Source: Nemertoderma westbladi
Lineage: Eukaryota > Animalia > Xenacoelomorpha
NCBI GenBank assembly: GCA_032718475.1
Contig: JAUCBJ010000064.1
Location: 34,175 to 98,174 of the forward strand
Length of the DNA: 64,000 nucleotides
Direction: 5' to 3'
Below the pieces are notes generated by a model that was given only the letters and a program-made list of their open reading frames with translations, ran no database searches and was not told where the DNA came from. The translations under genes were made by a program, and so were the position numbers. Below are positions 23,493-64,000 of this stretch, piece after piece. Numbering within the stretch: position 1 is the first letter of the stretch; every line of letters starts with the position of its first letter.

Positions 23493-25628
23493 CTTCGGGT
23501 TGGCTCAACCCCGCCACCTCCGGCCTACTAACTATACGGCCCACCAGGCCCTCACCTGCTGGGTTGTACTGTACACGCCCGACGTGTTCACGTTAATAGC
23601 ACCCATATTGGAAACGGGATTACTCTGTTCGTTCAAAGTAAAATCATTTGAATTATCTTGCGCAACTACACTATCTGAATTATTTTGTAGATTCGGGCTT
23701 GGATCATTATTTAAATTATTTGGATTATTTTGCGTAATTGCATTACTTAAATTATTTTGTAAGTTCGAATCCGGGTTATTATTTTGATTATTTTGATTAT
23801 TTTATGTAACTACATTAATATTAGAATTATTTTCTACATTAATATTAGGATTGTTCTGATTTAAATTTAAATTACTACCACTAGGCAAAGTATTTCCTGC
23901 AATAAAGGTTTGATTAGGATTATCCAATATGGTACTATTAATATTAACCACGTCTACTGTACCATTATTATTACCCCCCCCCCCCCCCCCCCCCCCGCCC
24001 GTAAGGTCACACCAGTTTCGTGTCTGTCGTGCGGTCCCTGTGAGTGGAGTATTAATAAACGTATCAACAGCCCTCGGCTCCTCGAAAATATTCGAGCCTG
24101 CCCCGCTCTCAGATGCCCCTACCCGCGCCAGTCCCACCTCGCGCGTGTGTACAGCTTCATACTCTACGAGTTTGTCTCGCTGTTTCTCCAATTCTTTTCG
24201 CTCACGCTCCACTCTTGCTATTTTATCCATAGCCTCCCGTTCGCTCTGCTCGGCCAATTCCATCTCTCTCCTAATCCCCTCCCTTCGCCTCGCCTCACGC
24301 TCTCTGCGTTCACTTCCCTCCCTCGCCTCACGTTTCTCGCGTTCCGCCTCACGTTCCTTTCGTTCACTTTCCCACTTCGCCTCACGTTTCTCGCGTTCCG
24401 CCTCACGTTCCTTTCGTTCACTTTTCTCTCTCGCCACACGCTCCTCTTGTTCCTTCAACTCTATTTCATCATACTCCCTAAGGCTCCTCACGGCCCTTTC
24501 GGCCCTCTCTCTTGTCTCTCTAATCGACACCATTTCCCTCTCTAGCAGCACTCTCCCCTCCTCTAGCCGTCTACCTACTTCTCTATTACCTTGCACTGCT
24601 AGATTGAGACGGTACCTAGCGTCTATCTCTCTCACCCGTATTTCTTTCGTGGAGGATGTAGCAGACTTATCGGTTGTGACGGATTCCCTCCGCCTTCCCG
24701 ATCTACTAACTTTCCCCCTCCTCCCGGAACTCCCTCCAACCGACGAGACCGAATCCGCAGGGTCAACCTCGGATTCGCCCTCCTCAGGTCTGTTCCAACC
24801 CACTAATTTTATACCCCGGGCATCGATTAAGTATGGTCCTATGTACACTACACTAGGTTGTATACCCCCGTGCCGCCATGAGTCATACAGTTCCTCAGCA
24901 ACCCTTGTCGCTCTCTCCTCGGCCAATTCTCTCTGCCCGAAGCGCATTAGATAATATAGATGTCTGTCCGACTTACCTAGTCCTGACTTTAGTTTTACCT
25001 CGTCTATCGTTTTCCCCTTTCTGGCCTCCTCTAGTAGTCTCCGGGTCGCGTTGTAGGCCCGTCGAAGTTGATCGGAGACCCCGACGTCCTCGTCGCCGAC
25101 CCCTCCTCCGTCTCTCCTGGTTCGACGTCGTACCGGCGGCCCCACCGTCGCCGTTCCGGTGGGCCGTCCGTCGCCCTCGGCCTGTGCCTGGCCGGCGACA
25201 TCGGTATTGACATCTCCGTCGTCTCTCCGGGTCCGGCGTCGTACCGTCGGCCCCACCGTCACCGTCACGGTGGGCCGTTTGTCGCTCTCGGCCTGTGGCT
25301 GGCCCGCGACATCGGCACGTCGACCCTCGTTCCGTGTCGACTCGTCTCTTTCTCCCTCGAGCTCTTTCTCTCTATCCTCCGACTCGACTCCCCCTCCTCT
25401 CGACTCGGCTTCTGACTCCAGACGGTCCCCCTCATCTTGAACTTCCGGGTCACCCATTACCGATGGCTCCGGCGTCGTGGGCCTATACCGCCTGGTCGCG
25501 GCCTCGCGGATCGTTTGTTCTTCGTCCGGGGTCCGCGTCGGTGTTGTCTCTCCCGACTGACTCATCTCTCTTCTGTAGATTGGTGGTTGGTGGTTGCTGA
25601 GTTTAGCTAGCTAGGGCGGCAGCTCTGA

Positions 25629-25637
25629 TTTAATTAC
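25629..25637 (-). other. BEL-1 primer-binding position, non-tRNA type, complementary to its own LTR
   Basis: Minus-strand GTAATTAAA abuts the 5' LTR; the minus-strand LTR contains TTTAATTAC (25828-25836; 11880-11888). Confidence 0.65.
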
Positions 25638-26205
25638 TGTGACGGGATCCAGGAAGGATCCCGGTTTATCCGGTTGTTTAGTTCACGCGTCCCCGCCGTG
25701 TGTATGAAAGGTAAAAGGAGTTCCTGTCGTTCGTCGTATATAATAATCGGTTGTACGGATATATAGATATAGGGTATATAGATATAGGCATATGAATAAT
25801 GTTGTCGTATACGGAAGGCGGGTTACGGTAATTAAAGTCCCGGTCCTTCCCTAGCTAAACTAACTAACCTAACTAGCACCAATAAGATACTGAGATAACT
25901 GAACTGATATGATTACTGCCAACTGGCTATATTGCACGGGTTGGCCTTGTTACTCTACCTGATCGATGCTTCCCCCCCCCCCCCCCCTCTGATTGGTTGA
26001 TACCCTTGTTGGCGCCCTTTGGAGTGTTCCCGTTCACCCCAGCTATTCTCTCTCGGTTAGGGGTTTGGCCCCTGACCCTTATTGTTTGTTCCTCCTTCCC
26101 ATTTTGTTGGGGTGACACGAGTTGGTGATTGCCCAACCTCGTGGCCCCCAATATTGCTTATCGGCTTAACTTTATGGGGTGTTAGCGGGATTGAATAAGC
26201 TAACA
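25638..26205 (-). repeat. BEL-1 5' LTR
   Basis: Direct repeat of 11690-12247, upstream of gag. Confidence 0.95.
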
Positions 26206-39744: not shown

Positions 39745-39780
39745 TAAAGAATTATCCTATTCATTTACTATTTTACGTAC

Positions 39781-40010: not shown

Positions 40011-42650
40011 CGAACCACTGATACCACTATTCAACTCCCAAAAAGCAACCTCCAAGCGAATCTCCAAACACCGCGATAAGGTACAAGACCTCAACTTCAA
40101 AATGAAACATCTTCCTGGAAAGGAAATACCCTGTGATTTCAGCAGCCGACATCCAATTCCCACCAAGCATCTAAGCGAGGATCAGCAAGAACGACTGGGC
40201 ATTGACATAGGCAGAGGGCTACATCAAGAAACTCAATATCATCGACTCACCTGACACAATAACAATCAAAGAACTCATAGCTGCTTCTCACTTTGACAAA
40301 ACTTACCAGAAACTAATCCAGACCTTGCGCTTAGGCAAACATCCAACAGAGAGCAGTCTCGAAGGCTATCGACGAGTCTGGAACGAACTATGCATTGTTG
40401 GAGACCTAATTATTAGGGGAGACAAAATTGTCGTCCCAGTTCATTCCAGGTTCGGGAAACATTAGACAATGGATCATTGATGCAGCTCATGAAGGACATT
40501 AAGGGGATTGTCACCATGAAGCGCCACTGTAAAAGCTTCTGTGGGATATAACTGGCCCCTTTTGCTTCGCAATCCAGTTTCCCCCAGGCGCTGGAATACT
40601 CTAAAAAGGTTCTCTAACTGTATATATATTCCCCTCGCCCGCAAGGTACCGTTACAGGTGTTTTAACGGACATAAAAGTCATTCTTCTATATACGTGCTT
40701 TGGCGGACATGGTAAGGCAAAAAACCTGCAATGCACCAAATACCTTTACACGGCTTGGCCTTGATGATTCAGATTGCGACATCTAGCAGCTGGTTGCTGG
40801 CATGGAAACAGCCATTGGACGCATGGTTCTTTGTTTGGCTTGAGCCAATCAGAGCGATTTTTTCTGTCGACGTGTAGATATTCGGCCGATGATACTAGGA
40901 GTGTTCAGTCTTACTGTTTTTTGGTGATACTGTTGTGTTGTTGCTATCTAGGCCAGGAACACCGGCTCTAGAGTCAATTCGTTTCAGACTTTAGAAGAAA
41001 CATTAGTAGGCTTAAGATTATAGAGCGTATAACTGTTATCTTGTCACATCTTGTCATACCATCTTAACCTACCGTCTTAATGCTATTTACTGTTACTATT
41101 ATTATTTGGAGAACATTTATAAAGAACCCAAATTTCCCAATTTTCTTGATACACTACAGGTTAGAGAGACGGGTTATATATAGCGATTGCGACTTATATT
41201 ATTGTGGTTTGTAGTGAATTTAATGCTATTTGATAAGCACTACATGAATCCGTTGCTGTTCTCTTTATATATGATAAAATTCATTGACGGTCGGCAAATT
41301 AGTGAGCAGTATTGTGTGTTACCGGTAGTGTGCATGATTGTGACTGATAACTAAGCATTTCCTAAAGAATGCGCCTCATACGTGAATCATAAGCCTTACC
41401 GACTTACCGTTGTGATTAGTATAAGTCATATCTCTGTTTACTTAGATAGAGCGCCACATCCTAAAGGAACTGTTAATATTTCCCGAAAGTGAATAATATT
41501 AGTCAGAAATTATTTATTAACGATCAATCGAATAATACAATACAGTAAGCTTACACTGCAATAATAATCTAAGCCCTCAGAATCCAGCCCCCCGGGTATA
41601 TCCAGCGGGTGAATGGATGCGCACTAGGCTGGCTTCTGCTAATGTTGTGTTTATTGGTATTAAATATTTGTCATCTTCTAAAGTCTATTTATAAACCAAA
41701 AGACATATAAATTTTGGCAGGTTAAACTGCTAAAGGTCTTCAAAAGCGCGTACAGCCACATCCGATCAAGAGTTTGGTTTCCAAACATGGACAAATGTGT
41801 TGAATATAGGGTAAATAGTTGCCTCGCTTGCCAGGCGGCAACCAAGACCCACCATCGAGACCCACTCATTCCATCAACACCACCCATGCAACCATGGCAA
41901 CATTTATCCGCAGATCACTGGGGTCCAACAGAAGATGGGAAATTTCTTCTGGTCGTTGTTGATGAACTTACAAAGTACCCAGAAGTAATGGTAGTAAATG
42001 GTACCAGTTCTGATAAGAACATTGAGGCATTTGACGAGATCTTTTCTCGGCACGGCTTCTGTGAAACACTTATCAGATTCCCATGAGTTACAACAATATC
42101 TTAAATGGGCGGGAATAAAACACAAGGGAACTCAGAGTGCTGAAGACCCAGAAGCCAACGGACTGGCTGAAAGCTTCATGAAACACTGCCAGAAAACATG
42201 GCACACTGCCATAATAGAAAAGAAAAATCCCACAGCAAAACTAAACAAACACCCCCAAATGTACAGAGCAACACATCAAATATCGACAAACAAATCCCCT
42301 TCTGAACTACTCTTCGGAAGGAAATTCCAAAACCGCCTCCCAATGCTTGCCGAATCTTTCGAGCGTAAAGACATCAAGGAAGCCCGATTCAATGACATGT
42401 TGGCCAAAGAAAAACAGAAAGGATACAAAGACGCCAAACAATACGTAAAGCCACATGAAATTTCAAAAGGAGACCAAGTGCTGCTCAAACAAAAACCAGA
42501 CAAAATCAAAACCACCTTTCGATCCAAAGCCTTATAACGTCACAGACGTTGTTGGCCACCAAATAAAAGATAATTAGGATGGAAAAGAGATAACTAGAGA
42601 CGCACAGAACTGGAAGCAAATTAAGACAAACACACCAATTAACTACGGTA
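40011..42650 (+). mobile_element. Degenerate Ty3/Gypsy pol fragment (end of RNase H and integrase)
   Basis: HLPGKEIPCDFSSRHP; AHEGH...VWFPNMD...CLACQ; PWQHLSADHWGP; PEANGLAE; SPSELLFGR; several frameshifts; no LTRs of its own seen. Confidence 0.85.
40528..41754 (+). mobile_element. Solo LTR related to the BEL-2 LTR
   Basis: TG...CA; perfect TSD GCCAC (40523-40527, 41755-41759); collinear, diverged reverse complement of 47187-48351. Confidence 0.9.
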
Positions 42651-47186: not shown

Positions 47187-48351
47187 TGTTCGCGCTTTCA
47201 GACCTTTAGCAGTTTAACCTGCCAAATTGGGATGTCTTTTAGATGATAGATAGTCTTTAGCCTATGACAAGTATTTGATACACTACATTAGCCGAAGCCA
47301 GTTTATGCGCGATCATTCACCCGCTGGATACACCCGGGAGACTGGATTCGGAAGCCTAACCGTATTGCGGGGTAGGCCTACTGTATTATTCGACTGATCG
47401 TAATATATAATCTCTGACAAATTTTATTCACTTTCGGGAAATATTAACAGTTCCTTTAGGACGTGGCGCTCTAAATATGTAAACAGAGTTATGACTTAAA
47501 CTAAAAACAACGGGATGGCTATAGATTCACGTATATGGCGCATTCTTTAGGAGATGCTTTGTTATCAGTCACAATCATACACAATACTGCACAATGCTGC
47601 AAACCGATCTGCCGACCTTCACTAATTTTAGTCACATATAAAGAGAACAACAGACAATACATGTAGGGCCTATAAAATAGCATTAGATTCACTTCAAACC
47701 ACTTAATGTAAGTCGCAATCGTTATATGTAACCAGTCTCTCTAACCTTTAGTATATCAAGACTATTGGGGTGTCTGATTATTTATCAGTATTCCAAATAT
47801 AATATTCCATCAACAAATATAATGAATAACCGACAGTAAAAGCAGTAAAATGTTAAGGTATAAATTGATATGATCGATTTGGTTAGTATGATTAGTTAAG
47901 TGAGATAACAGATATACGTTCTATAATTAAGCCTACTAATGTTGAGCTAAAGACTGAAACACGGAGGTTCCAAAGCCGGTGTTCTTAGGCTGTGGACAAA
48001 ATCACACACTGACTCAACTCCACGAGTTTCTATATACAATCTCTAACACAGAGGCAAAAAACGCTCTGATTGGTCGACCGAACAAAGAAGGAACAGAGAA
48101 CAAAGAAAAGCTACACGTGTACAGCATCAGCTGTTAGCCGTCGTCATGGTAGCTACACTGTTTCAAGAGGATCCAGCGTATTGCGTCATAGAATTGCTAA
48201 TTATGTCCGCTAAAGTACACATACAGAAGAAATGACTTTTATGTCCTCTAAAACACCAGTACAGTAAGGACACGGCCTTTTATGCCTGTTAAACCAACTA
48301 CAGAGTACTTTACCGGGAAAATAACCGGCTAATTCCGCAAAAGTCTTTACA
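47187..48351 (-). repeat. BEL-2 3' LTR (~1165 bp)
   Basis: TG...CA; first 479 bp match 62120-62598 with about 5 differences by eye; both ends confirmed by the solo LTR; minus-strand TATA-like (~48033) and TCAGT (48008-48012). Confidence 0.9.
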
Positions 48352-48429
48352 CCGCTCCCAGAAAATGGGATTTAAGTCTATAAAATATAACAAATCACAG
48401 TTTCTAAAATATAAAAATACTCTAAACAG

Positions 48430-50625
48430 TTAGTCTTTCTTACGCGGACGGCGTTTACGCAGTTTTTTGAGGCTAGCAAGAGTCCTTTTCTCTTTGGGGC
48501 GAGCCACTTTACTAGGAGGGCTGTAACTCCTGGGTGAAGGGTGCAATACAATTGCATCAGAAGGTTTAGGATTACGATCGGTATATCCGCCGGTCGAGGT
48601 ACCTGGTTGATCGATATCAACTTCAGTGGAGCGAGGTCTAACGGCCTTTAGGGCGCGTCTTAGGACAGCAGCTCCTACGGGTCCTTGACGGGTCGCCTGG
48701 ACAATGGCGGTAGGCGGACCGTGAGTGGTGAGAAACTTCCTTGGTTTAATGGTTCTTTCCAGCTCGCGTTCTCGGGCTCGATATTCGTAGGGCCGTCGAG
48801 ATACTTCCTGTAACTCAGGGTGCGAGTTGATAAATAAATCGCCATACTCAGGGTCTTGACGGATGTAATTGATCAAATGGTATGAAGTAATATCGTTAGG
48901 ATTGACGTTCCTAAGATATTTTCGAACAAATTTGGTGGAAATACACTCACCAACACGCTTCATTAGTTCGTAACTCGGTGTGCGTGTTTTTTGTTCCACA
49001 GACGCGAATAAATAAGGATGGAACGCGTAAACTCCCTCATAAGAGCGTCCAGGGTAGTAGCGATGGCGGGACTCACAATGTAAATCCGCGTTCGCTTCCC
49101 AAGCTCGGATGTAGCGCAGGGTAATCATCTCATCTACGCTTTCTAAATCGTGGTTAAAGGGGCAATTATAACTGGCATGTCCTTTAAGTTGACAGTGGTG
49201 GCATTGGGTCATAAATTGGGGGCAGACTGCAAAAATATGCGAGTTATTAAGTCTGCAATACGCACAATAGATTTCGATCATCGGTTGTTCGTGGAAATAG
49301 GAGCAGGGTACGTCGGAGTCCATAGGGGTGAAATGGTCTCTCGATGCGCATAATCGACAACGTTTTCGAGAAACATAGTTGGCGTGTCGATAATCGTATG
49401 CGGTGAGACATTGTGGACCTTGATACCACTCCAAGACGTAATCGTTATCGCTGCTCCGGGGCGCTGTAGGCTGGATCGCTTCAGATTCTAAGCATATTGG
49501 TTCGTCTTCCAATTGCATAGCTGAGGTAGGTGCGGCTGTCTCCGCAAGCGGACCCACTGTCTGAACTTCCACGACAGAATAACCTGTGGGTATTCGGGGT
49601 CTTTGTATAACAGATGAATGTAAGTTCTGTATACAAACGTCCTGAAAGAGGGCAAATCCCGCGCTGTTTAGCTTCTCCGCAGCTGAGTCTCTTAGGCTGA
49701 GTTTGGTCAGAGCGCGGTCCTTGAACTGACTATCAACGTTACGGAACGGAGTCAGAAAGCGCCTGAAACATTCGAAGCGGATGAATTTATTGTGTTCATC
49801 TAACTTGGCGAGTTTGGTTCCAAGTATTAAGGGATGGGCGCGTATGGTACGACTGCACACATCGGCTAGCCAACCGGCAAGTGCTGCGTTTTCAAAGATC
49901 GTGTATATAGCTAAGGAGGGACGAAGTGGAACACTCATAAAGCTATACACGACGCCAGGTGCGGTCAATGGTCCATCAAAGTATAAATGAGAATAATGAT
50001 CTCCATATACTTGTTGGTAATTTATAGGATTTCCAACCTTGAAATTCCATCCGTATTCTTGAAAGGCAAGATGTCCGATGGAGGTTCGTTGTACTTTAGT
50101 AATGCCGATGGGTGTATTTGCATACATAGTGCGGAAGAAACCTCGGCCTTCTGCCCAGGGAGCAATCAGCTGAGTATCAACGAAGGGGTATGGAATGTTC
50201 TCCATATTCCGGAAGTCGTTTTGTAGGTCTCCATAAACAGCTGAGCCGATTTTAAGGATTCTTTCGTTAAACAACATCTCGAGCACGGGCTGGGGTAACA
50301 TCGATCCATCGATACCCATGGCCGGTTTGCGCTCGGTGTCAGCGACATAACGCTGCGCGAGCTCGAATTGTCCATGTCGGAGTCTCTTTTGTGTCTCAGT
50401 AAGAGTTTCAAAAGAATAATCAATCACATCGGAACACGCTCGAGTAAATACGTGGGTAGAACCAGCGAGTCCTCGTATGTGTATCATCCGCGTAGTTCCC
50501 AGTTCTCCAACCGGAATGCTACCTTCATTGTCGTAGGTGACAACTCCATACATCTCGATAACGTTGAGAGTCTCATTCCACTCTTTAGTGGCGTTTTCGA
50601 GGGTCATTCCCACAGGATGCCACAA
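48430..50625 (-). CDS. BEL-2 accessory protein, C-terminal part: DEDDy-type exonuclease plus 3 CCHC-type knuckles
   Basis: VTYDNEG; LPQPVLEMLFNERILKIGSAVYGD; FVDTQ; YTIFE; CRLC..H..C, CAYC..H..C, CHHC..H..C; collinear with 12959-15505. Confidence 0.8.
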   Translation of the reverse strand: MWHPVGMTLENATKEWNETLNVIEMYGVVTYDNEGSIPVGELGTTRMIHIRGLAGSTHVFTRACSDVIDYSFETLTETQKRLRHGQFELAQRYVADTERKPAMGIDGSMLPQPVLEMLFNERILKIGSAVYGDLQNDFRNMENIPYPFVDTQLIAPWAEGRGFFRTMYANTPIGITKVQRTSIGHLAFQEYGWNFKVGNPINYQQVYGDHYSHLYFDGPLTAPGVVYSFMSVPLRPSLAIYTIFENAALAGWLADVCSRTIRAHPLILGTKLAKLDEHNKFIRFECFRRFLTPFRNVDSQFKDRALTKLSLRDSAAEKLNSAGFALFQDVCIQNLHSSVIQRPRIPTGYSVVEVQTVGPLAETAAPTSAMQLEDEPICLESEAIQPTAPRSSDNDYVLEWYQGPQCLTAYDYRHANYVSRKRCRLCASRDHFTPMDSDVPCSYFHEQPMIEIYCAYCRLNNSHIFAVCPQFMTQCHHCQLKGHASYNCPFNHDLESVDEMITLRYIRAWEANADLHCESRHRYYPGRSYEGVYAFHPYLFASVEQKTRTPSYELMKRVGECISTKFVRKYLRNVNPNDITSYHLINYIRQDPEYGDLFINSHPELQEVSRRPYEYRARERELERTIKPRKFLTTHGPPTAIVQATRQGPVGAAVLRRALKAVRPRSTEVDIDQPGTSTGGYTDRNPKPSDAIVLHPSPRSYSPPSKVARPKEKRTLASLKKLRKRRPRKKD

Positions 50626-50644
50626 GGTAGCGCATTCGCTAGCA

Positions 50645-52625
50645 TTAGGTAGGTAGATACTTTAAATATTGTGTGGTATATGTTTCCACATCTCCATATC
50701 GTTGTATTCTTTCTTCCTCGAATAACACGTCAAGATTCCAGTGTAATAAACGAGTTTTGATGAATCCATCAAGATTATACGGAGGTATTGTTTCTTTCTC
50801 TATTCTGGAAACATTGTATGGTTTTCGAAATGAGTTTATTTTAACTAACTGATCCAGATGTTTATGCAGTTGTTCGAGTTCGACAAGATCGAGAGGATTT
50901 ATGAGTGGCAGAAACCTCAGACTATGTGTAGGATCTTCCGGTTTTACCATGTAATATTGTGTTAGGTTGACGTAATAAGGGTGATCTTTGATCCCATAAA
51001 ACGAGTCCGGTAAAGGTCTAGCACATATGTTTACATCGTGTACCATGCGACGGACAAGATCCGCTCTATTGTCCGGAGGTTCAACGAGTATACCATCGAC
51101 ACGAGCGGCTTCGATGGGCGGACGTTGCAACATGGGAGCGTCAGCGATAAGATCTTGAGATCTTAGGTTGATATCAACCGGTTGGGGTTGTACCGTCGCA
51201 AAGAGTTTGTCTCCAAAATGGGGAACCATCGAGGGATGAAGGATGGTTTTAGAGTAGAGATCCGTCATAAGGATTTGAGCTTCGGGTTGAGCTAAAGCTG
51301 CTTCTTCTCTCTCACCCATTTCTATATGTCTCTCCTCGAGCTGATTTTCCTCCGCTTGTTGTTGTAGACGCTCATCTAGGAACTCTTGTAAAGAGTAGGT
51401 TCGTCCACGTTCGATGTCCTCCTCGAGATTTTGTATTTCTCTATCGAACTGGGGTAAAGCTAATTCCTTCACCGCTTGGACTTGTTGCAATTTACGTTTC
51501 TCCAAACTATCGTAAGTTCCCTTTCCGATTTTCTGCCGAATAGCGTCTAACGCGTTTCGTACGACGCTCTCTTCGACTTCCGTAACGGGTTGTATCGAGG
51601 TGAAGCCGGGACGGTTGTGTGGGTTAAACGGCGATATTAGATGACCGCGTCCCAATCCAGCTAGGTAGGGTTGGCGAATATCTAGTGAGCCTACTACCAG
51701 AGTGCCACCGATCAACTGTTCGGGTAACACTAGATCTTTGAACAGCGAATACAGTTCGGGAGGATCCGTGATACTATTAGGATCAAGAGTCTGAGGTCTA
51801 ACTGAGGAATGAGGAGGTCTGACCGAGTATTCCGGAACTCTGATCATTGGTTTGTTCAAGGATCGTTTGAGTCGAGCGACTGTAGGGGATACGTCGAACA
51901 GGTTTCGCTCGAAACTCCCATAAGTATATCGTGTAAAACTGTGTTTAGCGCAACGTCTCCGCGGATGTTTATGTCTTTCCGTTTGCTGATTGGGTCTAGG
52001 GCACTCGTCGCAGTAATACCAAAGACGCACGTCCTGCAGGGGAAACGCGGGTGATCGTTCTCCAGCTTTACAATATTCCTCCATCTGTTCGAAGCTATCT
52101 GGGACGACAGGTAGCGGTCGATCGGCGGTAAGATACATCATAGTGAAATAGAGTCGTTTGAGTTCTATCATAGGGTCATGATGTATACCTTGAGGATATC
52201 AAGTTTCGAGATTTTGTTGACTGGCAATATTGAGGTATGTCTCTCTCAGGAATTCCAGATAATCGTTGAAGTCGCTGCGTTTATCCGGCTCTTCAACGTC
52301 TTCCCTTTCGAGTCTGTTTCTAATATTTAAATAAAACCATTTCCCTTTCGGTGTCTACGTCGTCCGTATCGTGTAAATCGATAGGATGGCCAGTAGTTAA
52401 GAAGTCCATATACGTACCATTACGATGCGTATAGCGAGCGGTGAACTTTCTATAATCCAATTCACGCGTAAGTTGCTCCTGGGACATTGGCGGTTCGATA
52501 TAACGACCATCATCCTCCGTAGTAGTTGGACCAGCGTCGCCGCGTATCAAGCTATCGACAAATGCTTGTAAAGGTAGAGTATATCGCTCCCTGATACCAA
52601 GATCATCTTCTATCAACTCAGTCAT
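50645..52625 (-). pseudogene. BEL-2 accessory protein, N-terminal extension of unknown function (ORFs 52320-52625 and 50645-52171)
   Basis: Joins the exonuclease ORF after correcting a 1-bp indel (~52322), one TGA (~52200) and a 4-bp ACCT duplication (~50648); has a CDEC...H...C..H motif and a coiled coil. Confidence 0.65.
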
Positions 52626-54459
52626 ATCTGCTATGAGTTTATCAATATTATAATGAGTTTATATATTAGGCTAGCGGGCGTCGCTGCCTACCCCTCTTTT
52701 GCCCCCGGACAGTGTAAGATCCTCAGCGCCGATGTACCGTCGTCGCTGTGCTTTCGCCAACGATGTAGCTACACAACGACAACGATAACCGGCACAAGTC
52801 ACTCCACTGTCCGTCCCAAAGGCTTAGATGTACTTCAGGTTCTTTCTGGAGAGTTAGGGCTACTTTCACAATTGCGACTAGCTACTGTAAACACACTTTA
52901 GCAATAACATTCACCTATGAACGCACAAATTCAACACAACTGCCACAAACCGCACACATTCGGGCCATTTGTCCGTTAGTCAGTACCTTCCAGAATGTCA
53001 CTTTATTTATTATGTATCCTTGGATACTAGCAGTGCGCTATTTATTCCCTATGCTATTCAATGGGGCAAGCTTTCTATTGTTCTTTTAACTCACTTCTAA
53101 TTCTAGCGTGGTTGTTGCTATGGTGACATTATGGAAAGCTAGCGGTAGAATTAGGGTAATTCTCATGCATACAGATCTGGGATGCTATTTAATAGTAATT
53201 CTTTAATTGTCAATATCCTCTCTATATATGATTTTATGAATTTTATCGGCTATTGACTATATATTGGAGATTCTCGCACACTAATACACTTAATAGAGTG
53301 AATCTCCGCTCCCATGATCTATTAATTAATGGAATTTTGGGAATGTTATAAATTGTATAAAATGACAATTTATTAAATTCATTGAAATATATGAATTTAA
53401 ATTTATTCCCGTAAATTTTATTATTTAATGTTAAATAGACACAATTTTATTCCAGAACAAGTCTAGGGACTGGGATCCTTGATTCTAGGAATTTTGTCCT
53501 TTTAAGAGTATCGGTAAGTGCTACGATATCTTAATCGACTAGAATTTTAAAGGATCTAAAATTTCGACAGATTTTATAAATATTAATAATTAATATTTAG
53601 GATGGGCACCAGTTTATTCCAGAACTTGTCGGGGACATTAACCACTGATTCTAGAATTTGTCTTTCAAGTATATCGGTGGGTGCCGCGATATCTTAATCG
53701 ACTAGAATTACAGATGGTCAAAGGGTTTAACAGATTTATTTTGCGTTATACGCTACTGTTAAAAGGACATCACGCTACTATATGTATTATTTAATATACG
53801 GTATGAGAGCAATATCGCACGAAGCAATGTCAGTGAGAAGAGGCAAGTCGTTTCCAAGGTCTACCCAGAGCTTGGTTTAGCCGAGACACGAGGATCTGAA
53901 TTTTGCATTCCTAATACTCTGCTTTACCAATAATACTTGAATATAGTAGGAGCTTTATTGTACTTTAATAAGTACGGATATTTCGTCTTACTGTAGTTAC
54001 GTATTTGTAATGTAATACAGACAGTAAGGAAGGAGGAAAAGAATTATTTCTCGCCATCGCACTAAATATATAATATATAAGTAATTAAGTAATAAACGCG
54101 AATATATATTGCACTAATCTACTAAATAATCGCTAAAATAACATTCTACTAAATAAATTAAAGAAAACGATTATAATAAAATTACATAATAATACATACA
54201 TAATATAAAATAATAAAAATGAATATAAAATAATATAGTCACACACCCACTCCGTATGTTGTTACGTTATGGAGTCCCTAGATATTTGTTGGATTAGGGA
54301 GGTGGTCGTGGGAAGAGTATCTTGTCTTCCATAGTTTCCGGAGAGTTCTCTGTCTCTTTCCAGTAAACATAAGCGACCAACTGGGCGATTGAGCTGCTGT
54401 GTCTCGAAGACAATTCCTGGTTTCTTGAAGTTGCGTCGCATGACGACGAGTTCTACCGA

Positions 54460-55830
54460 TCACACCAAACCGTCATCCGAGATGTGAGTCTCGATGATAC
54501 GACCTGTCTGCCACCGCTTAAGTGGAAGATCTACATCCACAATAAGAACCATGTCTCCAGCGCTGACGTTTTCTTGCTGCGCAAACCACTTAGTTCGAAG
54601 TTGTAGCGTGGGCAGATAATGTTTTTCGAAATGGTCAGCGAAACGACGGGATAACAACTGCATGAGTTGCCAAGTTTGCCGGCAGTATTCGTCTCCGTCT
54701 GTGATTTCCGATTGTGGGAGCATGGCTACAGGTTTCTTCAGTAGGAGGAAGTGCGCATGTGTTAGCGCTTCCAGGGAATCGGGACTCGATGAGACTGGCA
54801 TAAGCGGTCTCTCGTTGAGATAGGCGGCGATTTCCTCCATTAACGTCCGCAAAAGTTCGTCGGTGAGATACGTGCGGCAAGGCACTATAAAGTGAAATGC
54901 TGTCTTCACACTTCTTATTAATCTCTCCCAACTTCCTCCCCACCAAGGGGCATCGGCGGCGTTGAAGGTCCAGCTAGACGCTGTTACTCGTAGCTGATCG
55001 TCCACCTGTCTTTGGTTCCAATCTTTGACGTAAGCTTTGATTTCATTGTTGGCACCAATGAAGTTTGTTCCCTTATCAGATCTCATCGTGTTACTAGTGC
55101 CAAAGCGAGCGATCTGTCGTCGTAAGCTTAATAGAAAGCTGTTGGTAGATAAATCGTTCACCATATCGAGATGGATAGCTCTACAAGTCATACAAACAAA
55201 GATGACACACCATCTCTTGACTATAGTCCTAGCATGATATACTTCAATAGGGCCAAATAAATCTACACCGGTATTAGTAAAGGGTGGTTCATAGAAGCTT
55301 ACTCGTTCCCTAGGTAATTCTGCCTCTCTCTGTGTTAAAGGCCTACTGAATGCTTTCCTACAGGGTATGCAGTTCCTAAGAACTTGGTTCAGAGCTCTAC
55401 GGGGTTTATAAAAATAATAGCGAGTTCGAATTTCGCTAAGAACTCGTTCTCTACCAGCATGATAAAGTTTGCTGTGAACATCTACAATCATCTTGACTTG
55501 TATCTCAAGATTTCTAATGAGTATGGGAAACTTAGTGACAAAGGATAATGGAGCATTCGTTAATCTTCCTCCAACACGTATCAACCCATCTATCATTGTG
55601 CTAGAGAAACGATCCCTTAAGTGCATCTGCGGATTTCTCAACAACAGGAAATACTTATCGGAATCCTCATAGCATTGCAGGAGTCTCAGCATCTGCTTGT
55701 TGGTTTCTTCATGCTCCTGATAACTGATCTTCTCCTTCAGAAACCTGTCGGATATCTTATATTTGGGAAGATCTTTAATAACATGGACCTGCACCGATGT
55801 TATTGGAGCGGTATCAAACGGGTCTTCCTA
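54460..55830 (-). CDS. BEL-2 integrase
   Basis: GLIRVGGRL, H..LYH..CIPC, TGVDLFGP, SDKGTNF, APWWGGSWERL, YLPTLQLRTKW. Confidence 0.92.
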
Positions 55831-58724
55831 GAAACGGGTTTCTCACTTACCTTGTTTTCCGGTGTCTTCTCTCTGGACTGTTTTAGGAGCTGTAATTTCA
55901 CTTCTCCATCTAAGAATGACATGAGATCAGCCATGGTAGGGTCTCGTCGTTGTTGTTCCATCATATATAACACTTTCTTATCCCAGCGTGTACCTACTCC
56001 ACCCTTCGGTAAAGTAGAAGCCACGGCTCCAATAACCATAGAACTCTGATATTCATGAGACTTACCTAACCAATCTAATTGTCTACAGATCTCTTGAATC
56101 TCATCGGAAAACTCTATTATCCCGCTGCTAATGAACTTTCGGGGCACTACTAATTTTGCATACAAATATTTAGCTATGTTATTCCTATTACCATACCTGA
56201 TGTTTAGTGTATCCCAAACTTGTCTTAATCCGTCTGGATGTCCAATAAACTTTAACGCCATTAACTTGGGAGATCCTTCCAAGCACTCGGTGAGGAATCT
56301 AAGTTTCTCTCCATTAGATAGTACAGAGTTCTGTATGTTATCTTTATAATATTCATTAAAAGGTAACCATTTCATCTCATCTCCATTGAACTTGACTATC
56401 TCTCCCACCTTTACCGCTTGACGGGCTTCGGTTCTAGCCATTTGACGCGTAAAGCTTTCTTGGGCCATCGTGTTATTTAATATCGAGTTATCGGTATATA
56501 AATTTCTCGGATTATGATCAGGTCTATAGGGAATATCATTATCAACAGGTCTATAATTACCCTTAATAGGGTTCACTATAGGAGTTTCTACTTCGCTAGC
56601 AGTATATATGCGTGTAGGCTCCACACCTTGCGATTGAAATACTTCAGACCTAACAGGTTGACACATTGTTACCGGGGTTGCTGGTATACCCTTTTGTGTA
56701 TTTACTAATTTATCGCGTTCTAACGCTATACTTTGCTGCACTTCTTGCAACTCTAACCTACTCTCTCTAATTGTTCCCTTTAACTGCTGCACAGTTCCCT
56801 CCATCTCCTGGGCCTGCTGAGAGGAGCGAGAATGTTGTTCCCTCAGCTGTCCGAGCAGGAGACCCATCTCCCGTCGTCCCTCATCTACCCACTCGACCGC
56901 CGAAGAGGGAGGCGCCAACGTTGTAGCGGGCGGACGAGGGACAACGGGCGACAAGTCATGAATATTTCACTCGGAGTCCAGGACAGGAACAATTTCAGGG
57001 GTGGTTCTGTGGGGCACAGGTAGCTTCGTGCTGTGCAGAGGGAATTTAGAGGTAGGTTCAGGGAGTACAGGTGTCTCTATCACCAAAGGGGTGGCTTCGA
57101 GAACAGGCCTAATTATTTCAGGCTCATCTACTATAGTAGGGAGTCTTTCTATGTTAATTATTTGGTCTGTGGGTTCTGTACTACCTAAGTCTGTGCTAGC
57201 TAGTTGTCTTCTAACAGCTGGGGGCAAATCAGGCAATTTCTGACGGTGGGACATTCTTTTACGTCTGCTTAGGCGAGATCGATTTCCTCCGCCTTCAGGA
57301 TCGGTGGTATCGCCTTCCTCAGATGATGTATATCCCTGTCTTTTGGGAGTTGATCGACTCATCATCTGCATATTACTAGCTGTTAACTGTTTATTAAAGT
57401 TGTCTTGCTTCTCTTGAAGATTTTCCAACTCTAGTTGGGTTGTCTCTTCAGATGCCCTCTGTTCTGCTTCTGCCACTGCCTCTGCCACTGCCACTGCCGC
57501 TTTTCTTTCCGCTTCTGCCGCTGCCACTGCTGCTGCCACTGCCGCTGTCTTTCTATCTTCTATACGTTTTTTCTTTACTTGTTCTTCTTGAACCTTAGCG
57601 ATGCGGATGCTTTCATCAAATTTAGCTTGATTCGCAGCTATCCTATCCACATCAATTGCGTCCAACACAAGCTTGGCTCCTTCACTATTAGGGCTAAGTC
57701 CCTCTAGTCTTCTCCTCAACTTTTCATCTCCTACAAAACGTTGATAGTCCGACAGATAGATGTCAATAGCATCCCTCTTATGCGGTTTCTCTGCTGTCGC
57801 TTCACTTTCCACTTGGGAAAATGTAGCGTCTGTTGATTCTCCATGGGTTGAGCGCTCATCCAGTTGAACTTTCCACTGAGCCGTTCCTTGAACCTGGAGA
57901 CTCACCCGTTGAAACCAAGTCTTTACGGCAACTTGCAACGACGTGTCTTGTCTTCTTTTAGAAGCCTCCTCAAAGGCCGATAAGATTAGCCTGATTCGCA
58001 GAATTCTTTCTCTAACTTGATAAAGCAGCTGTCCCTGCTCTTGAGGTCCTTGGGGTTGTTGAAACAGTTGTTCCTTTAATCGCTCCATAGAGCTGAAGAA
58101 TCCCTGTACGTATCCGGCTGCGGACCTCTTCCACACAGCTGGATCGATGGTTTCCTTGGTTACTCCCATCCTGTGTATGTCTTCCCAGGCAGCTTCTGAT
58201 AAATCAAACGGGAGTCCGGGTCCGGGGAAGTTCCATTGCGACTCGACAATAGACTTCAGTTCTTCCCTTGTGTATCCCGCATAACTATCTTTAGTCGATC
58301 GCTTATTTCTCGCCCAATCGATCTGGTGTTCTTCCACCACAATCAATAACCTAGTGAGTACGGCTGCAGGAAGGATGAGAAGGGGGTCCGAATAAACCGC
58401 ATCTGTCATCTTTGCTCCGTGCTCGGTTGTCAGCTCTACAGTATCCGCACTACTGGAGCTGTCGGGCCGCTGAGAAATAAGTTCTTGGCTCGCGGGTAGT
58501 TGCTGTTCTGCTGCTTCTTGGTCCCGCTTGACCTGAGCTCGAGTGCCTATGATAGACCTACGATGTTGGACTAGCCTAGGGTCTGATATTACTACTGGAG
58601 GGATGATCTTTCTTACAGTAGGAGGTGAGTTGAACTTCGGTCCCACACGTTCCACACTCCTGTCTGGGTCACATATGGTTGTATCTAGGAGACTGTCTGA
58701 TAGGTTTTGTTTCGTGTCAGACAT
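55800..58724 (-). pseudogene. BEL-2 gag (one in-frame TGA at 56967)
   Basis: KFNGDEMKWLPF...EKLRFLTECLEG...VWDTLNIRYG Pao-gag pattern; ORFs 56967-58724 and 55800-56954 are in the same frame. Confidence 0.85.
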
Positions 58725-58849
58725 GTTGATTTGTACAGTTGAATGCCTACTGCTATATTACAGTTTAAGCAAGTCTAGTAATTCAGTATCACTGTTAGCC
58801 TAGTAATTAATTACCGATACTGCTACTCAGTGTAGCGTGATATATATAT

Positions 58850-59230
58850 AATATATTAGAATACCGGTATGCTTATAGTATATATATAAGTATTATTACA
58901 GACTAGGTTTGTCACAGAATACCGGTATATAATTCCAGCACAAATATATATAAATATATAATAGGCCTATCGTGGATACCGGTATGCAGTTTACACTTAT
59001 AGTATATATAAGTATAATTATTAACTAGAATTAATTACAGAATACCGGTATAATTTCAGCCTAAATTTATAAATATATAATAGGCGTATCGTGAATACCG
59101 GTATACAGCTTACACTTATAATGTATATATATAAGTATAATTACAGACTAGAATTAATTACAAAATACCGGTATAATTTCAGCCTAAAATTTATAGAAAT
59201 AAATATAATAAGCCTATTGTAAATACAGGT
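58850..59230. repeat. ~120-bp tandem repeats (3 units) in the BEL-2 5' leader
   Basis: Recurring ATACCGGTAT...TTATAGTATATATAAGTAT...CAGAATACCGGTATAATT. Confidence 0.75.
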
Positions 59231-60054
59231 ATGTCAATTATTTTAGAATAATTGAATTTCTGAATTTTAAGGGTTACTTGGTTACTTTAACTTACTTTAT
59301 TACCGTTATTTAAGCAGTAGTCCAACTGATATTGAGACCTAATTGTTGTATGGCAGGTCTACTATTTTATAAATCGTTTAAGTTGATTTATAATATATAT
59401 ACCCGTTAAAATGGGTTTTTGTCAATATTTGAAATAAATGTTATTATTTCTGGGGGAGTCACTACACAGAAGCTGTGCGCTCTCAGTGAAGTGCTACTTG
59501 TTGGACACTAAAACAAATAATTCTAATTTACCTAAGTTACTTAATACTACAAATTACGTACAATTCTGGGTGAGATTACAATCTCTAAATAAACACAAAA
59601 ATTACACGTACGAATTTTTAGGGTAATTTTACAAGAAGTCTATAAACCAGCCTAACAAAGGGTTAGAATATCTGGTTATTGCAACGGACAGGTTACTACG
59701 GTATTTGAAAATAATAAGTAGTAGTAAATATACTGCGTTGTCCAGATAGGAAAATACCACCGTCTGACGACTTATAGCCGTATCGCTATAAGTACTACGT
59801 TATGTATCACGGAGTGTTCCTACCTAGAAGTTAATTACCGCGGTCTACCAGAACCAACGTGCCTATTAACCACTTTACAACACAAATATACTGCCTACAC
59901 ACTAATCACCTTCGGAAAGCACTGTACACTAAACCCTAAATTAGGTACAAGTACTTATATAACAAATAATCAGTAGTTAAAAATACTTGAACAGCCAAAA
60001 GAACCACGGTATCTGCTGGAGTGACCGGGGCACAAAATCACCAGTCTTTACCTC

Positions 60055-61097
60055 TAGGGTGGGTCGATTTTTACTTTTTTCGGATATCTAGATTTTCTCA
60101 TTGATAAAAAGTGGCCTTGGGTCCTAAAACTTTGTAGAAACGAAATTTTAACTCCTAAAAATCATGTTTGACCCCTGCACTGGACGTCGTCCAGTTCCCG
60201 TCCTAGCCGCTAGTGAGTCATTTTCCCAATTATTGTGATGATCAACTTCTAGTATTCCTACCGCATTGATATTATGCTCATTAGAACCGCAATGACCGAT
60301 TTAGTTGGTGTAGACACCTTCAAAACAAGCATAGAGCGAGTAGTTTTTGAGATATTGCAGAATTTGTGAAGTCCAGTACAAGTCAACATTAGCGCCTTGA
60401 TGCGGTATTGACAAATACACTAAAAATTATAATTCTAATTTTCTCAAGGCAACCACAATTCCCACATAACTGCAATGATCAATTTAGGGGATGTTGACAC
60501 TCTAAAAATATTAATTGAGTGATTAGTTTTCGAGTTATTGTACAAAATGTCAAGGTTAGGTCCACCAATTAATGACCTTATATTGAGCTGACTCAATCCA
60601 GACGTTTTGTACAATAACTCGAGAACTAATCACTGAACTCATATTATTAGAGTTTCAACATCCCCTAAATTCATCACTGCAGTTATGTGTAAATTGTGGA
60701 TGCCTTGAGATAATTAGAAGTATCATTTTTAGTGTATTTGTCAATACCGCATCAAGGCGCTAATGTTGACTTGTACCGGACTTCACATATTCTGCAATAT
60801 CTCAAAAACTACTCGCTCTATGCTTGTTTTGAAGGTGTCTACACCAACTAAATCGGTCATTGCGGTTCTAATGAGCATAATATCAATGCGGTAGGAATAC
60901 TAGAAGTTGATCATCACAATAATTGGGAAAATGACTCACTAGCGGCTAGGGCGGGAACTGGACGACGTCCAGTGCAGGGGTCAAACATGATTTTTAGGAG
61001 TTAAAATTTCGTTTCTACAAAGTTTTAGGACCCAAGGCCACTTTTTATCAATGAGAAAATCTAGATATCCAAAAAAAGTAAAAATCGACCTACCCTG
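60055..61097. mobile_element. Foldback MITE with ~500-bp inverted arms
   Basis: 60055-60551 is the reverse complement of 60601-61097; no TSD recognised. Confidence 0.85.
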
Positions 61098-61209
61098 ATG
61101 TAGTACCGGGGTTAGTTTAACTATAACGGTATATATAACAAGCACAATTACTGTAGGAATAAACTTGGGGATATGAATGTTGCGAATAATCGCATAAACT
61201 CTGAATAAT

Positions 61210-61780
61210 AAATATTACGCTACGCGTACAGACTACTCAAACAAAATGCAGACCAAATACTGACAGACTACTATCAAACCCAAACAAACTACGGTATATG
61301 CAGACTCCGAAATGATTAGTTAGTATGCGTTCTAACCGAGTAGTACGACTTATTCTTTCGAGGGGGTTTACCTCACAGCTCTGTAAGCTCCTACGTTCCC
61401 AACTGGCACTTTATCGGACATACACTCTGCACACACCGAAATCTCTTCAGACCTAACAACAGCCAGGCAAAATCCAGCCTACAAATTGTCTAAATAAGAA
61501 ATATTACGCTACCCGTACAAACTACACAAACAAAGTACAGACCAAACGCTGGCAGACTACTATCAAGCCTAAATAAACTACAGTATATGCAGACTCCGAA
61601 ATGGTTAGTTAGTATGCGTTCTAACCAAGTAGTACGACTTATTCTTTCGAGGGGGTTCACCTCACAGCACTGGCAGCCCCTACTTTCCTAACTAGTACTT
61701 TTTCGGACATACGCTCTACACACACTACAGTCCCTTCAGACTTAACAACAGTCAGACAACAGTCCAGCCTACAAATTATC
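61210..61780. repeat. ~288-bp tandem duplication in the BEL-2 leader
   Basis: AATATTACGCTAC...CAGCCTACAAATT occurs twice with scattered differences. Confidence 0.85.
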
Positions 61781-62107
61781 TGTACAATCTGAGCAGGCTT
61801 ACACGCCTTCTGCTCAATATTGACCTACAAATAAATAAAACTTGACAGAAATAAGTAAAATCTCAATAAAAAACCAGGGCAGGCCCTCCCTGATTCAATA
61901 TTAAGGCCTACCGGTATATAATTATCAAATCGAATAATACTGCTGTACCTGTACTGCTGTAGGTACCGGTCCGGGTGGTTAGGTAGTCAGGCCAACTAGG
62001 TACCGGTTGTCCGGTACTTCAGCGTCATTGCCTACTGCAATACAGAAGCTATATCTGTTATTGTTCTTACCAGAACAATAGACAACTATATCTTCTGATT
62101 GTACGTA

Positions 62108-62119
62108 TATATCTGTTAT
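62108..62119 (-). other. BEL-2 primer-binding position, non-tRNA type, complementary to its own LTR
   Basis: Minus-strand ATAACAGATATA abuts the 5' LTR; the minus-strand LTR contains TATATCTGTTAT (47905-47916). Confidence 0.7.
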
Positions 62120-62598
62120 TGTTCGCGCTTTCAGACCTTTAGCAGTTTAACCTGCCAAATTGGGATGTCTTTTAGATGATAGATAGTCTTTAGCCTATGA
62201 CAAGTATTTGATACACTACATTAGCCGAAGCCAGTCTATGTGCGATCATTCACCCGCTGGATATACCCGGGAGACTGGATTCGGAAGCCTAACCGTATTG
62301 CGGGGTAGGCCTACTGTATTATTCGACTGATCGTAATATATAATCTCTGACAAATATTATTCACTTTCGGGAAATATTAACAGTTCCTTTAGGACGTGGC
62401 GCTCTAAATATGTAAACAGAGTTATGACTTAAACTAAAAACAACGGGATGGCTATAGATTCACGTATATGGCGCATTCTTTAGGAGATGCTTTGTTATCA
62501 GTCACAATCATACACAATACTGCACAATGCTGCACACCGATCTGCCGACCTTCACTAATTTTAGTCACATATAAAGAGAACAACAGACAATACATGTA
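62120..62598 (-). repeat. BEL-2 5' LTR, inner part only
   Basis: Matches 47187-47665, then breaks at TA. Confidence 0.92.
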
Positions 62599-64000
62599 CC
62601 CAGCAAAGTCATAGCATGATAAGTCGCTGATAAATTGCTACTAATTTCGCCGGCTAATACCCTGCTAATTTCGCCGGATAAAAGCCGGCTTTTTGGTTCC
62701 AATGTTCTTAAAGGTTTCGAAGGGTGGATTTCGAAGAGAAATATCCATCGTTTAGTAGACTATTAGCCTTCGATTAGTAGTTTACGAAGCATATTCGAAG
62801 GATAATTCGAAGACAAAAATGCTTCGTTTAGTAGACTATTCGCCTGCGATTAGAAGTTTATTTAGCATTTTTCGAAGGATGATTTCGAAGATAAAAATGC
62901 TTCGTTTAGTAGACTATTAGCCTTCAATTAGAAGTTTACGAAGCATTTTCGAAGGATAATTTCATACATTATTAGAAGCATTTTCGAAGCATAAAAAATA
63001 CTATTTTTCGAAGAAAAAAAATGTAACTGAAACAAGTCCAATCACTGGACCTGCCTGTGGATGCTTTGGTGAAAGAGGGAGGGGGTATTAGCCTATACCT
63101 ACTGTAGTAGCCTACCGTATCCTACCCTACACCCTACTTCCCTATCCTACAATACGTTATATACTTATTAATGGAAGCGGCTGAGTATATAGAGAAATAT
63201 ATAATCAATATATATTTGAGGGTATCTATGGAAACTTTAGGTGATAATCGAAAAATTTGAATTTGTTAGTTGAAATTTAAATAATTTCCCATATTGTCAG
63301 CCATATTAGATTATTCGTGTTGATGGATCTATGAAAATTAATTAAATTTAGATGCATTTAATTAATAATTATGCTTCTCTGATGACGAAAATATGCATTA
63401 TTTGCCTGATAATTTATCTTCGTTTTCGAAGACAATTATCAGCCATATATAAAGAATTGATAATATTTTACATAGTAATGGACCAAGCGGCTCGGCTGGT
63501 AAGGAAATGACCATATGCTGCGAATGCTCATCAGATTTACAAATCTGAAATTCCGGTTTCAAATTTCAGTTCCTAGTTACAGTACGAATTTAAATTCCCA
63601 GATACGAATTGTTCACAGTAGTAATAAGTCTTTCTTCTGGAAAGTGAATCTGAACCCTCAGTTACGTTCTAGGGCGGGCGTTCATAAAGTACTGTATGTC
63701 ACGCAAATTTTCCCGATTTTTGACCACCCCCCCCCCCCCTCCCCACCCCGCTCTGTTTCAAAATGTCACGCAAGCTCGAGCCCCACCTCTCTCCCCTCTG
63801 TCTCATTGGTAAATTTGTAATGCCCCCAAACAATACCCCGTCCCCCAAACAAGAAATATTTTATATCAATAATACACAATGTTTGTTATACCAAAATACA
63901 ATATAAATTCAAGCACTATCTACATTTCCCTTCCCCACTGACAAGACAAGTGGCCATCTATAGGTTTCTATGTCCTCCTCAATTTATCGATTATACTCAA
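62599..64000. mobile_element. Left end of a DNA transposon (CMC/EnSpm-like) inserted in the BEL-2 LTR; right end not in the window
   Basis: Starts CCCAGCAAA after TA; ~75-bp subterminal repeats (TTCGTTTAGTAGACTATT...TTCGAAGGA) at 62715-62990. Confidence 0.55.

Follow-up and report, generated by a model that had tools for sequence, protein, structure and literature searches.

The BEL/Pao elements are the least studied superfamily of LTR retrotransposons, and the locus described here raises the question of what primes their reverse transcription. In the ICTV profile of the Belpaoviridae, the primer-binding site is an 18-nt complement of tRNA-Arg or tRNA-Gly (PMC8742986). Our window, the whole stretch of DNA that was analyzed, covers 64,000 nt of Nemertoderma westbladi (GCA_032718475.1, contig JAUCBJ010000064.1, positions 34,175-98,174, forward strand) and holds two elements, BEL-1 and BEL-2, neither of which has the 18-nt complement of a host tRNA 3' end at its primer site, judging from the missing TGG. 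ARAGORN found zero tRNAs within the 64-kb window, and Rfam returned only two matches over 61800-62700, both far below threshold. The relevant parts of BEL-2 are the following.

47187..48351, minus strand: 3' LTR, 1165 nt, TGT...ACA, with a purine tract before it at about 48352-48360
62120..62598, minus strand: 5' LTR remnant, interrupted at 62599, where unrelated sequence takes over
55803..58757, minus strand: gag region, with DUF1759 at 55803-56966 and an upstream 596-codon frame
54463..55827, minus strand: integrase, with Integrase_H2C2 and DUF5641
47905..47916, minus strand: candidate segment for self-priming, at LTR nt 436-447 and 718 nt short of the LTR end
62108..62119, minus strand: predicted primer-binding site, abutting the 5' LTR end and exactly complementary to the segment

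The 596-codon frame has zero Pfam matches, and a domain search of the gag-to-integrase interval found no protease, reverse transcriptase (RT) or RNase H. Judging from these domains, BEL-2 is a deletion derivative in which only DUF1759, Integrase_H2C2 and DUF5641 are left. Its LTRs have 479 nt in common, with 5 differences. Because the 5' LTR is broken at 62598/62599, the segment was read from the 3' LTR; likewise, the element's own target duplication is unreadable because the 5' end is cut off. AATAAA at 47428 was rejected as a conserved poly(A) signal of the LTR, since neither the solo LTR described below nor the 5' LTR contains it.

An earlier reading of the sequence alone had proposed that the BEL-2 primer site exactly complements 12 nt inside the LTR, and the letters and places were confirmed: 62119->62108 pairs with 47916->47905, and the terminal CA of the 5' LTR, at 62120, immediately precedes the site. 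The duplex had also been described as flush with the LTR end and followed by a mismatch; indeed, the flush complement stops at exactly 12 nt. Such a complement occurred in none of 2000 LTR shuffles (composition predicts 0.0004), and 2 of 300 shuffled primer sites matched equally well when spliced matches were also counted. Across the whole window there are 4 matches to the 12-mer with at most one mismatch, against 0.68 expected, a number reached by 1 of 100 shuffles. This count is weak by itself, and it is the flush position that carries the case. The suggested extension through CGT across a 2-nt bulge folds as claimed, yet adds only 3-5 pairs. Counting against self-priming, the core duplexes alone are weak (-11.8 and -5.0 kcal/mol), and the BEL-2 pairing must bridge about 720 nt.

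BEL-1 is organized as follows.

25638..26205, minus strand: 5' LTR
11690-12247, minus strand: 3' LTR
25828..25836, minus strand: candidate self-primer segment, 9 nt, 190 nt from the LTR end
25629..25637, minus strand: predicted primer-binding site, flush with the LTR end
25570..25628, minus strand: leader, in register to pair with LTR 25890-25837, upstream of the segment
16946..21604, minus strand: pol, with protease, RT, Peptidase_A17/RNase H region and integrase

Both elements belong to BEL/Pao by their domains (protease, Peptidase_A17 and integrase in BEL-1, with a full match to BEL pol, although a stop codon interrupts its RT) and by their TG...CA LTRs, purine tract and short target duplication, the last unreadable in BEL-2 itself. 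Large repeats elsewhere in the window, at 1-9066 and 39247-40010, lack TG...CA ends. The 9-nt flush exact complement of BEL-1 was equaled in 3 of 2000 shuffles. As had been anticipated, what BEL-1 and BEL-2 have in common is the pairing (9 and 12 nt, both flush) and not the letters. A spliced primer was rejected for both, the best spliced matches being 0 and 8 nt versus contiguous matches of 9 and 12.

In Tf1-type self-priming the RNA begins with the segment, as its first ~11 nt. Folding gave a mean probability of 0.88 for the BEL-1 duplex when the RNA begins at the segment. With a start at 25845 or farther upstream, the probability drops to 0.002-0.005, at a cost of 4.3-4.8 kcal/mol, which argues against self-priming. 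An earlier RNA start is favored by the upstream pairing and by initiator-like motifs, which lie 40-95 nt before the segment. The leader pairs upstream of the segment rather than with U5 (the U5 end makes a hairpin of its own), and U5 and the sequence adjacent to the segment fold together as a Tf1-like junction. The pairing continues for about 60 nt upstream of the segment, a likely departure from Tf1; a 5' fragment of greater length may therefore serve as primer.

Related copies were sought in the host organism's own DNA runs (X1, X3 and X4, variants listed at a share of at least 1%) and in one further run labeled as another organism. Other copies of the BEL-2 family follow the window through 9-12 letters of the site and diverge thereafter, and the main listed site variant, at 62115, preserves pairing as G-U. 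Copies of the LTR family abound in the runs, their summed contig depth, which measures depth and not copy number, being far above that of the flanks. No RNA run was among the listed holders of the LTR, which speaks neither for nor against its expression. One further member of the family lies in the window.

40528..41754, plus strand: solo LTR of the BEL-2 LTR family, with a 5-bp target duplication

This LTR is about 79% identical to that of BEL-2 over the best-aligned 659 nt, and its empty-site form is represented by one X1 contig that bridges the insertion point. Judging from this empty-site allele and from LTR pairs that are about 98-99% alike, the elements moved recently. The counterpart of the segment that had been noted at 41028-41039 is there, in a one-mismatch form, and a compensatory primer site was predicted to accompany it. 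The compensatory letter at 62112 is unlisted at a 1% share in X1, X3 and X4, a point against self-priming; a site with 11 of the 12 letters is weakly present, on 2 contigs of the run with the other organism label. Among the loose ends listed there was no TGG-type site.

The leader of BEL-2 contains a second copy of its site, within these features.

62050..62066, minus strand: second copy, 17 nt (last 5 LTR letters plus the 12-nt primer site), in the 3' arm of the hairpin
62067..62107, minus strand: 41-nt insert that repeats the next 34 nt in degenerate, inverted form and makes the 5' arm of the leader hairpin
62043..62097, minus strand: leader hairpin enclosing the second copy (z -4.71, 0 of 200 shuffles)
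62030..62049, minus strand: leader past the second copy, with LTR 47926-47917 or U5 47377-47362 as alternative partners

The sequence-only reading had taken 62050-62066 for a second mimic of the site plus LTR end. The 17-nt copy is real; it is not a separate mimic. It forms one arm of a hairpin whose other arm is the inverted duplicate (29 identities in 36 columns between the insert and the inverted 34 nt after it). It is better read, from its sequence, as the original junction, moved 58 nt by the duplication and locked in the hairpin. The inverted duplication of the junction would have built this hairpin, which would hide the second copy and leave the first site partly open. Contigs of X1 and X3 span the hairpin, and many copies share it. 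As for the partners of the adjoining leader, LTR 47926-47917 lies upstream of the BEL-2 segment, and U5 47377-47362, corresponding to 62310-62295 in the 5' LTR, can pair with the leader at -23.1 kcal/mol, a value without a shuffle control. In Tf1-type self-priming, two further duplexes (the 'pretzel') join sequence beside the site to LTR sequence lying downstream of the primer.

Outside the window, we assembled 11 BEL elements with a fixed LTR end. A flush self-complement of 10-11 nt is present in 7 of the 11, contiguous in one and formed across a predicted splice junction in six, each with GT...AG and a pyrimidine tract. Three others have a self-complement offset by 1 or 4 nt, picked post hoc, and one, L024, keeps a TGG site. 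Control sites at the 3' flanks of all 11 gave contiguous matches of 3-7 nt only and zero spliced ones. In a blind scan of 7 further loci there were 7 matches at 229 ACA sites (6 loci), versus 9 at 2028 control sites. Moreover, the sister elements L047 and L048 carry a matched change on both pairing sides. Among 11 cases checked for extension of the duplex upstream, two showed it significantly (0 of 200), two were borderline (8 and 11 of 200) and seven lacked it; being confined to a minority, it was rejected as a general rule, and this counts against self-priming. A quick integrase tree places BEL-1 and BEL-2 on long branches with weak support (75), and from it we claim no clade or order of events. 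Metagenome contigs yielded 0 instances of the exact U5 hairpin pattern, and three viral-contig scans gave nothing of use, a 41-residue match at chance level (L001) being left out.

Pairing without shared letters in BEL-1, BEL-2 and most of the outside elements tested points to self-priming. BEL-2 is likely Tf1-like, with a segment of its own RNA, freed at the 3' end, taking the role of the tRNA in priming DNA synthesis. The sequence allows such a duplex, and it ends flush at the terminal CA, the register required of a primer. The RNA would start within the 5' LTR, either at the segment or before it, and the in-register pairing upstream suggests that it extends some tens of nt more 5'. By analogy with Tf1, the RNase H of the RT would cut 3' of the segment, and the enzyme would then copy U5 and R; for BEL-2 it would have to be supplied in trans, because the element has none. 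Plus-strand synthesis would copy the attached primer, and the site would be rewritten from the LTR every cycle, which would explain letters that differ yet pairing that lasts. Occasional read-through would produce long leader complements.

Alternatively, the pairing could work as a structural switch, opening and closing the site in the service of packaging, dimer formation or translation, with a host tRNA fragment or small RNA as the real primer. Six letters of the segment resemble an Asn anticodon loop, several alternative LTR-leader duplexes are available, L024 has its TGG site, and ICTV calls the family tRNA-primed (PMC8742986). We nevertheless consider a switch unlikely: site letters vary among families without a common tRNA-like core, TGG is lacking in 10 of the 11 outside elements as in BEL-1 and BEL-2, and a switch does not need an ending flush at CA or across a splice junction. 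Somewhat less probable again is priming in trans, with the LTR segment supplied as a short RNA of its own; the numerous LTR copies, among them solo LTRs, could yield one as an aborted transcript, a processing product or a small RNA. The abundance of the LTR family suits such a primer, which would be unburdened by the long loop of BEL-2 and the unfavorable long-start fold of BEL-1; the Tf1-like segment/U5 junction of BEL-1, however, suits a cis fold, and the case demonstrated for Tf1 is cis priming (PMC7175516). It is very improbable that the complement has no function and arose as a by-product of events at the LTR end, such as fold-back or RT template switching, even though an inverted duplication did arise right beside the BEL-2 site, since the partners are 190 and 718 nt distant, the flush match recurs in independent families, matched changes occur, and recently moved elements would be left without a primer site.

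Self-priming without a tRNA site is described for Tf1/Tf2 of Schizosaccharomyces pombe, Tj1, Tosmo1-3 and the Tf1/sushi and Tcn1 groups, all Ty3/gypsy (PMC7175516, PMC10085805, PMC4600332). In those elements some 11 nt within the LTR are complementary to the site just past the 5' LTR, beside which lie extra duplexes; BEL-1 and BEL-2 likewise have a site that abuts the LTR end and complements a segment inside the LTR. The two differ from that group in their pol, which is not of the Ty3/gypsy chromovirus type (domains and named matches are BEL/Pao), and in a loop of up to about 720 nt; BEL-2 differs further in requiring RT in trans and in its duplicated, hairpin-locked second site. The TAR lineage of plant Ty1/copia elements (Houba, Osr-1) offers the same kind of prediction, likewise a prediction only, from at least 10 nt of LTR/primer-site complementarity, in another superfamily and kingdom (PMC6317226). 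Fungal GalEa Copia elements resemble BEL-2 in a conserved hairpin right past the 5' LTR and no tRNA site (PMC5445492); no LTR complement was found in GalEa, whereas the BEL-2 hairpin is duplication-born and lies downstream of an LTR-complementary site. With the Belpaoviridae the window elements share the LTR-gag-pol layout, DUF1759, Peptidase_A17, DUF5641, the 5-bp target duplication and LTRs of 0.6-1.2 kb, and differ in the missing TGG. Our literature search found no published account of BEL self-priming.

A broader scheme is possible, if doubtful. Much of BEL/Pao might prime reverse transcription with its own RNA, a long 5' piece of which would anneal along the leader as a tRNA of the element's own making. 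In many families the 3' end of that primer might be created by host splicing within the LTR, BEL-1 and BEL-2 being contiguous forms on long separate branches. The LTR would rewrite the site each cycle, and the duplicated hairpin of BEL-2 would switch between an open and a hidden site. If many BEL/Pao families do self-prime, the mechanism would exist in all three LTR retrotransposon superfamilies, which matters for deciding which is older, tRNA priming or self-priming. Such elements would escape control via tRNA supply and tRNA fragments, and would be missed by LTR-element finders based on tRNA sites. The window supplies exact coordinates for locating the RNA start, the cut and the primer-cDNA joint.

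One further small structure lies near the LTR end.

62138..62159, minus strand: short hairpin, its 22 letters identical at 47205-47226 and also found in the diverged solo LTR at 41713-41734

Two minus-strand BEL/Pao elements and one plus-strand solo LTR lie in the window.

Features of the BEL-1 and BEL-2 elements and of the solo LTR, a diverged member of the BEL-2 family
26205 to 11690, minus strand: BEL-1, LTRs of 558-568 nt
48351 to 47187, minus strand: 3' LTR of BEL-2, 1165 nt
truncated at 62598/62599, minus strand: 5' LTR of BEL-2, 479 nt in common with the 3' LTR, 5 differences
40528-41754, plus strand: solo LTR, 5-bp target duplication
25660-25643, minus strand: LTR-end hairpin of BEL-1
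62159-62138, minus strand: LTR-end hairpin of BEL-2

The ends of the solo LTR are fixed, because a contig of X1, a DNA run of the same species, bridges the empty site. The closest protein matches are BEL elements from many animals (28-36% identity). BEL-1 pol comprises protease, RT, Peptidase_A17 and integrase; a single stop interrupts RT. In BEL-2, integrase is the sole part matched by three BEL pol queries, and by this measure the element therefore lacks RT and RNase H.

As the sequence-only reading had claimed, the BEL-2 primer site, directly after the terminal CA of the 5' LTR (62119 to 62108), is the exact complement of an internal LTR segment, nt 436-447 (47916 to 47905). The complementarity ends at 12 nt; it was present in none of 2000 shuffled LTRs, with 0.0004 expected from composition, and is a real, non-chance feature. 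BEL-1 has a flush complement of 9 nt with letters unlike those of BEL-2 (3/2000 shuffles; 0.002). The same reading was borne out in reporting a one-mismatch form of the segment in the solo LTR and a second copy of site plus LTR end at 62050-62066. The ICTV profile of the Belpaoviridae gives an 18-nt site for tRNA-Arg or tRNA-Gly (PMC8742986); BEL-2, in contrast, is a BEL/Pao member without this tRNA-site feature. A short stable hairpin lies a few to 20 nt ahead of the terminal CA in both families, and the diverged solo LTR repeats the BEL-2 hairpin letter for letter.

Alignment of 17 BEL proteins led to 103 outside loci, of which the 82 of at least 4 kb were examined; 11 elements were picked by eye, in each of which two copies with a CA terminus fix the LTR 3' end. 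Seven of the 11 have a flush self-complement of 10-11 nt. In six of these (L006, L011, L015, L031, L064 and L104) the complement crosses a GT...AG junction, predicted from sequence, with a pyrimidine tract in the LTR; in L030 the complement is contiguous. Shuffled sites equaled the real match in 0-5 of 300 trials, and 3' flank controls gave matches of 3-7 nt and no spliced match. Three elements failed the flush test, each with an offset match visible by eye (by 1 nt after an AG in L017, by 4 nt in L012 and L048), and L024 has a TGG site without a self-complement. In L047 (1-175), as in L048 and L012, the self-complement begins about 4 nt past the LTR end; a single change, matched on both sides, separates L047 from L048. 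A blind scan of seven further loci, with L035 left out because its start is unknown, matched 7 of 229 ACA sites (in six loci) versus 9 of 2028 control sites; some of these cases are interdependent, since L032 is a duplicate of L031 and several loci come from a shared study series. These outside loci are the set on which the spliced-primer idea was tested. The L078 complement spans 17 nt, 10 of them in a predicted upstream exon. A quick integrase tree places most of the spliced elements in a single group with support of 99; BEL-1 and BEL-2 form long branches whose placement is weak. BEL/Pao pol also occurs in 25 contigs of prokaryote genome bins (L002-L026), some with whole elements and paired LTRs; these contigs are most likely host DNA.

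By analogy with Tf1, a Schizosaccharomyces pombe retrotransposon primed by its own RNA, the segment is probably the 3' end of a self-primer freed by RNase H. RNase H would release the primer 3' of the segment, Tf1-fashion, and the site would be rewritten every cycle as the attached primer is copied; primer retention in Tf1 is reportedly the subject of a paper. A host RNA could instead prime, with the pairing acting as a structural switch. We consider this unlikely. A flush register, variable letters and spliced forms are all predicted by a primer and not by a structural switch. Priming in trans by the same segment is somewhat less likely still, and a complement that is a mere by-product is very improbable. 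BEL-2 most likely works like Tf1, probably with a primer of different length. In Tf1 the first 11 bases pair with the site and the cut falls between bases 11 and 12 (PMC7175516). Tf1/Tf2 are shown to self-prime; the mechanism has been proposed in Tj1, Tosmo, sushi and Tcn1 (PMC4600332, PMC10085805, PMC5341516), and the plant Copia TAR lineage is predicted to use it (PMC6317226). By word search, PBS and tRNA are unmentioned in the main text of the Sinbad paper (PMC554778) and of a metazoan BEL/Pao survey (PMC3118150). We found no paper on BEL/Pao self-priming in a search of mainly open-access main texts; subscription papers, Repbase reports or supplements could contain a note of it.

Across DNA runs, summed contig depth drops from the LTR end across the site to about single-copy just past it, and loose ends of family copies start at 62107-62113. 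The main listed site variant, at 62115, retains a G-U pair; another, at 62110, changes site position 10. The compensatory letter predicted at 62112 was not listed at a 1% share in X1, X3 or X4, all N. westbladi runs. A loose end at small share in X5, a run with another organism label (two contigs, agreement 0.67), has 11 of the 12 solo-type letters. Contigs of the runs are too short to join segment and site in one copy. The solo LTR mismatch may be a private change; its position, 41032, does not occur among the variant rows listed.

The second site copy had been taken for a separate mimic. It is better read as the copy with the original leader, the hairpin having come about by duplication, because 12 contigs of X1 and one of X5 start at the LTR end, pass the 12 letters and continue directly into a sequence that matches the window after the second copy at 18 of 20 letters (by eye). 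The 41-nt stretch separating the copies repeats the next 34 nt in inverted, degenerate form, and the resulting hairpin (62097 to 62043) has a z of -4.71 (0/200 shuffles). In the predicted fold of the natural 5' remnant, pairing takes up 10 of the 12 positions of the second copy and leaves 5 of the 12 free in the first. The hairpin is not private to the window copy, since 62050-62085 has a high summed depth of contigs from two studies (X1 and X3); X4 and X5 have no coverage there and are uninformative. One X1 contig spans both site copies with a spacer different from the window's. A U5 motif (47377-47362; solo LTR 41549-41564) is complementary to the leader after the second site (62049-62030). 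Two positions of this motif differ between the solo LTR and BEL-2, and the hairpin-free leader type (X1, X5) differs at two positions matching them (by eye), as read on separate sequences and not as a linked pair.

Folding of BEL-1 RNA depends on its start: begun at 25840-25836, the duplex forms with a mean probability of 0.86-0.88, and begun at 25845 or earlier its probability is 0.002-0.005, 4.3-4.8 kcal/mol over the best fold. Upstream of the segment, the BEL-1 LTR pairs in register with the leader over about 60 nt (-41.5 kcal/mol; 0/200 shuffles), stopping near three initiator-like TCAGT motifs (25907-25893); L006 pairs likewise over about 54 nt. BEL-2 has 7 additional pairs after the second copy (11/200 shuffles; L030, 8/200), and the upstream extension was absent in 7 of 11 cases tested. 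A CCAAT precedes the segment by about 150-160 nt in BEL-1 and BEL-2; initiator-like and CCAAT-type motifs generally mark transcription starts. We read the long leader complements either as stabilizing the duplex or as vestiges left when plus-strand synthesis ran on into a longer primer; on either reading, the RNA would have to reach upstream of the segment.

The BEL-2 leader is about 3.3 kb (58757-62108). It has tandem units at 61200-61781 and 58840-59233 and, at 60056-61096, two 507-nt arms, 95% complementary and 27 nt apart, which look like a fold-back or MITE-type insertion. Between integrase and 3' LTR, both BEL elements have extra reading frames without a Pfam hit (minus strand; 743 and 517 codons at 48430-52198 in BEL-2, 851 codons at 12959-15514 in BEL-1). 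The 743- and 851-codon frames, which have no counterpart in the fetched outside loci, have a Cys/His-rich stretch in common (26% over 100 aa, E 2e-6). Units of 30 nt and 36 nt form tandem arrays at 42795-44800 and 15862-16801; the 36-nt array falls within BEL-1, after integrase and before the extra frame. Three non-LTR-type RT frames are present (30329-33853, minus; 35481-36821, plus; 45154-47217, plus); one carries a PHD finger and an endonuclease, and the frame at 45154-47217 contains the BEL-2 3' LTR end at 47187.
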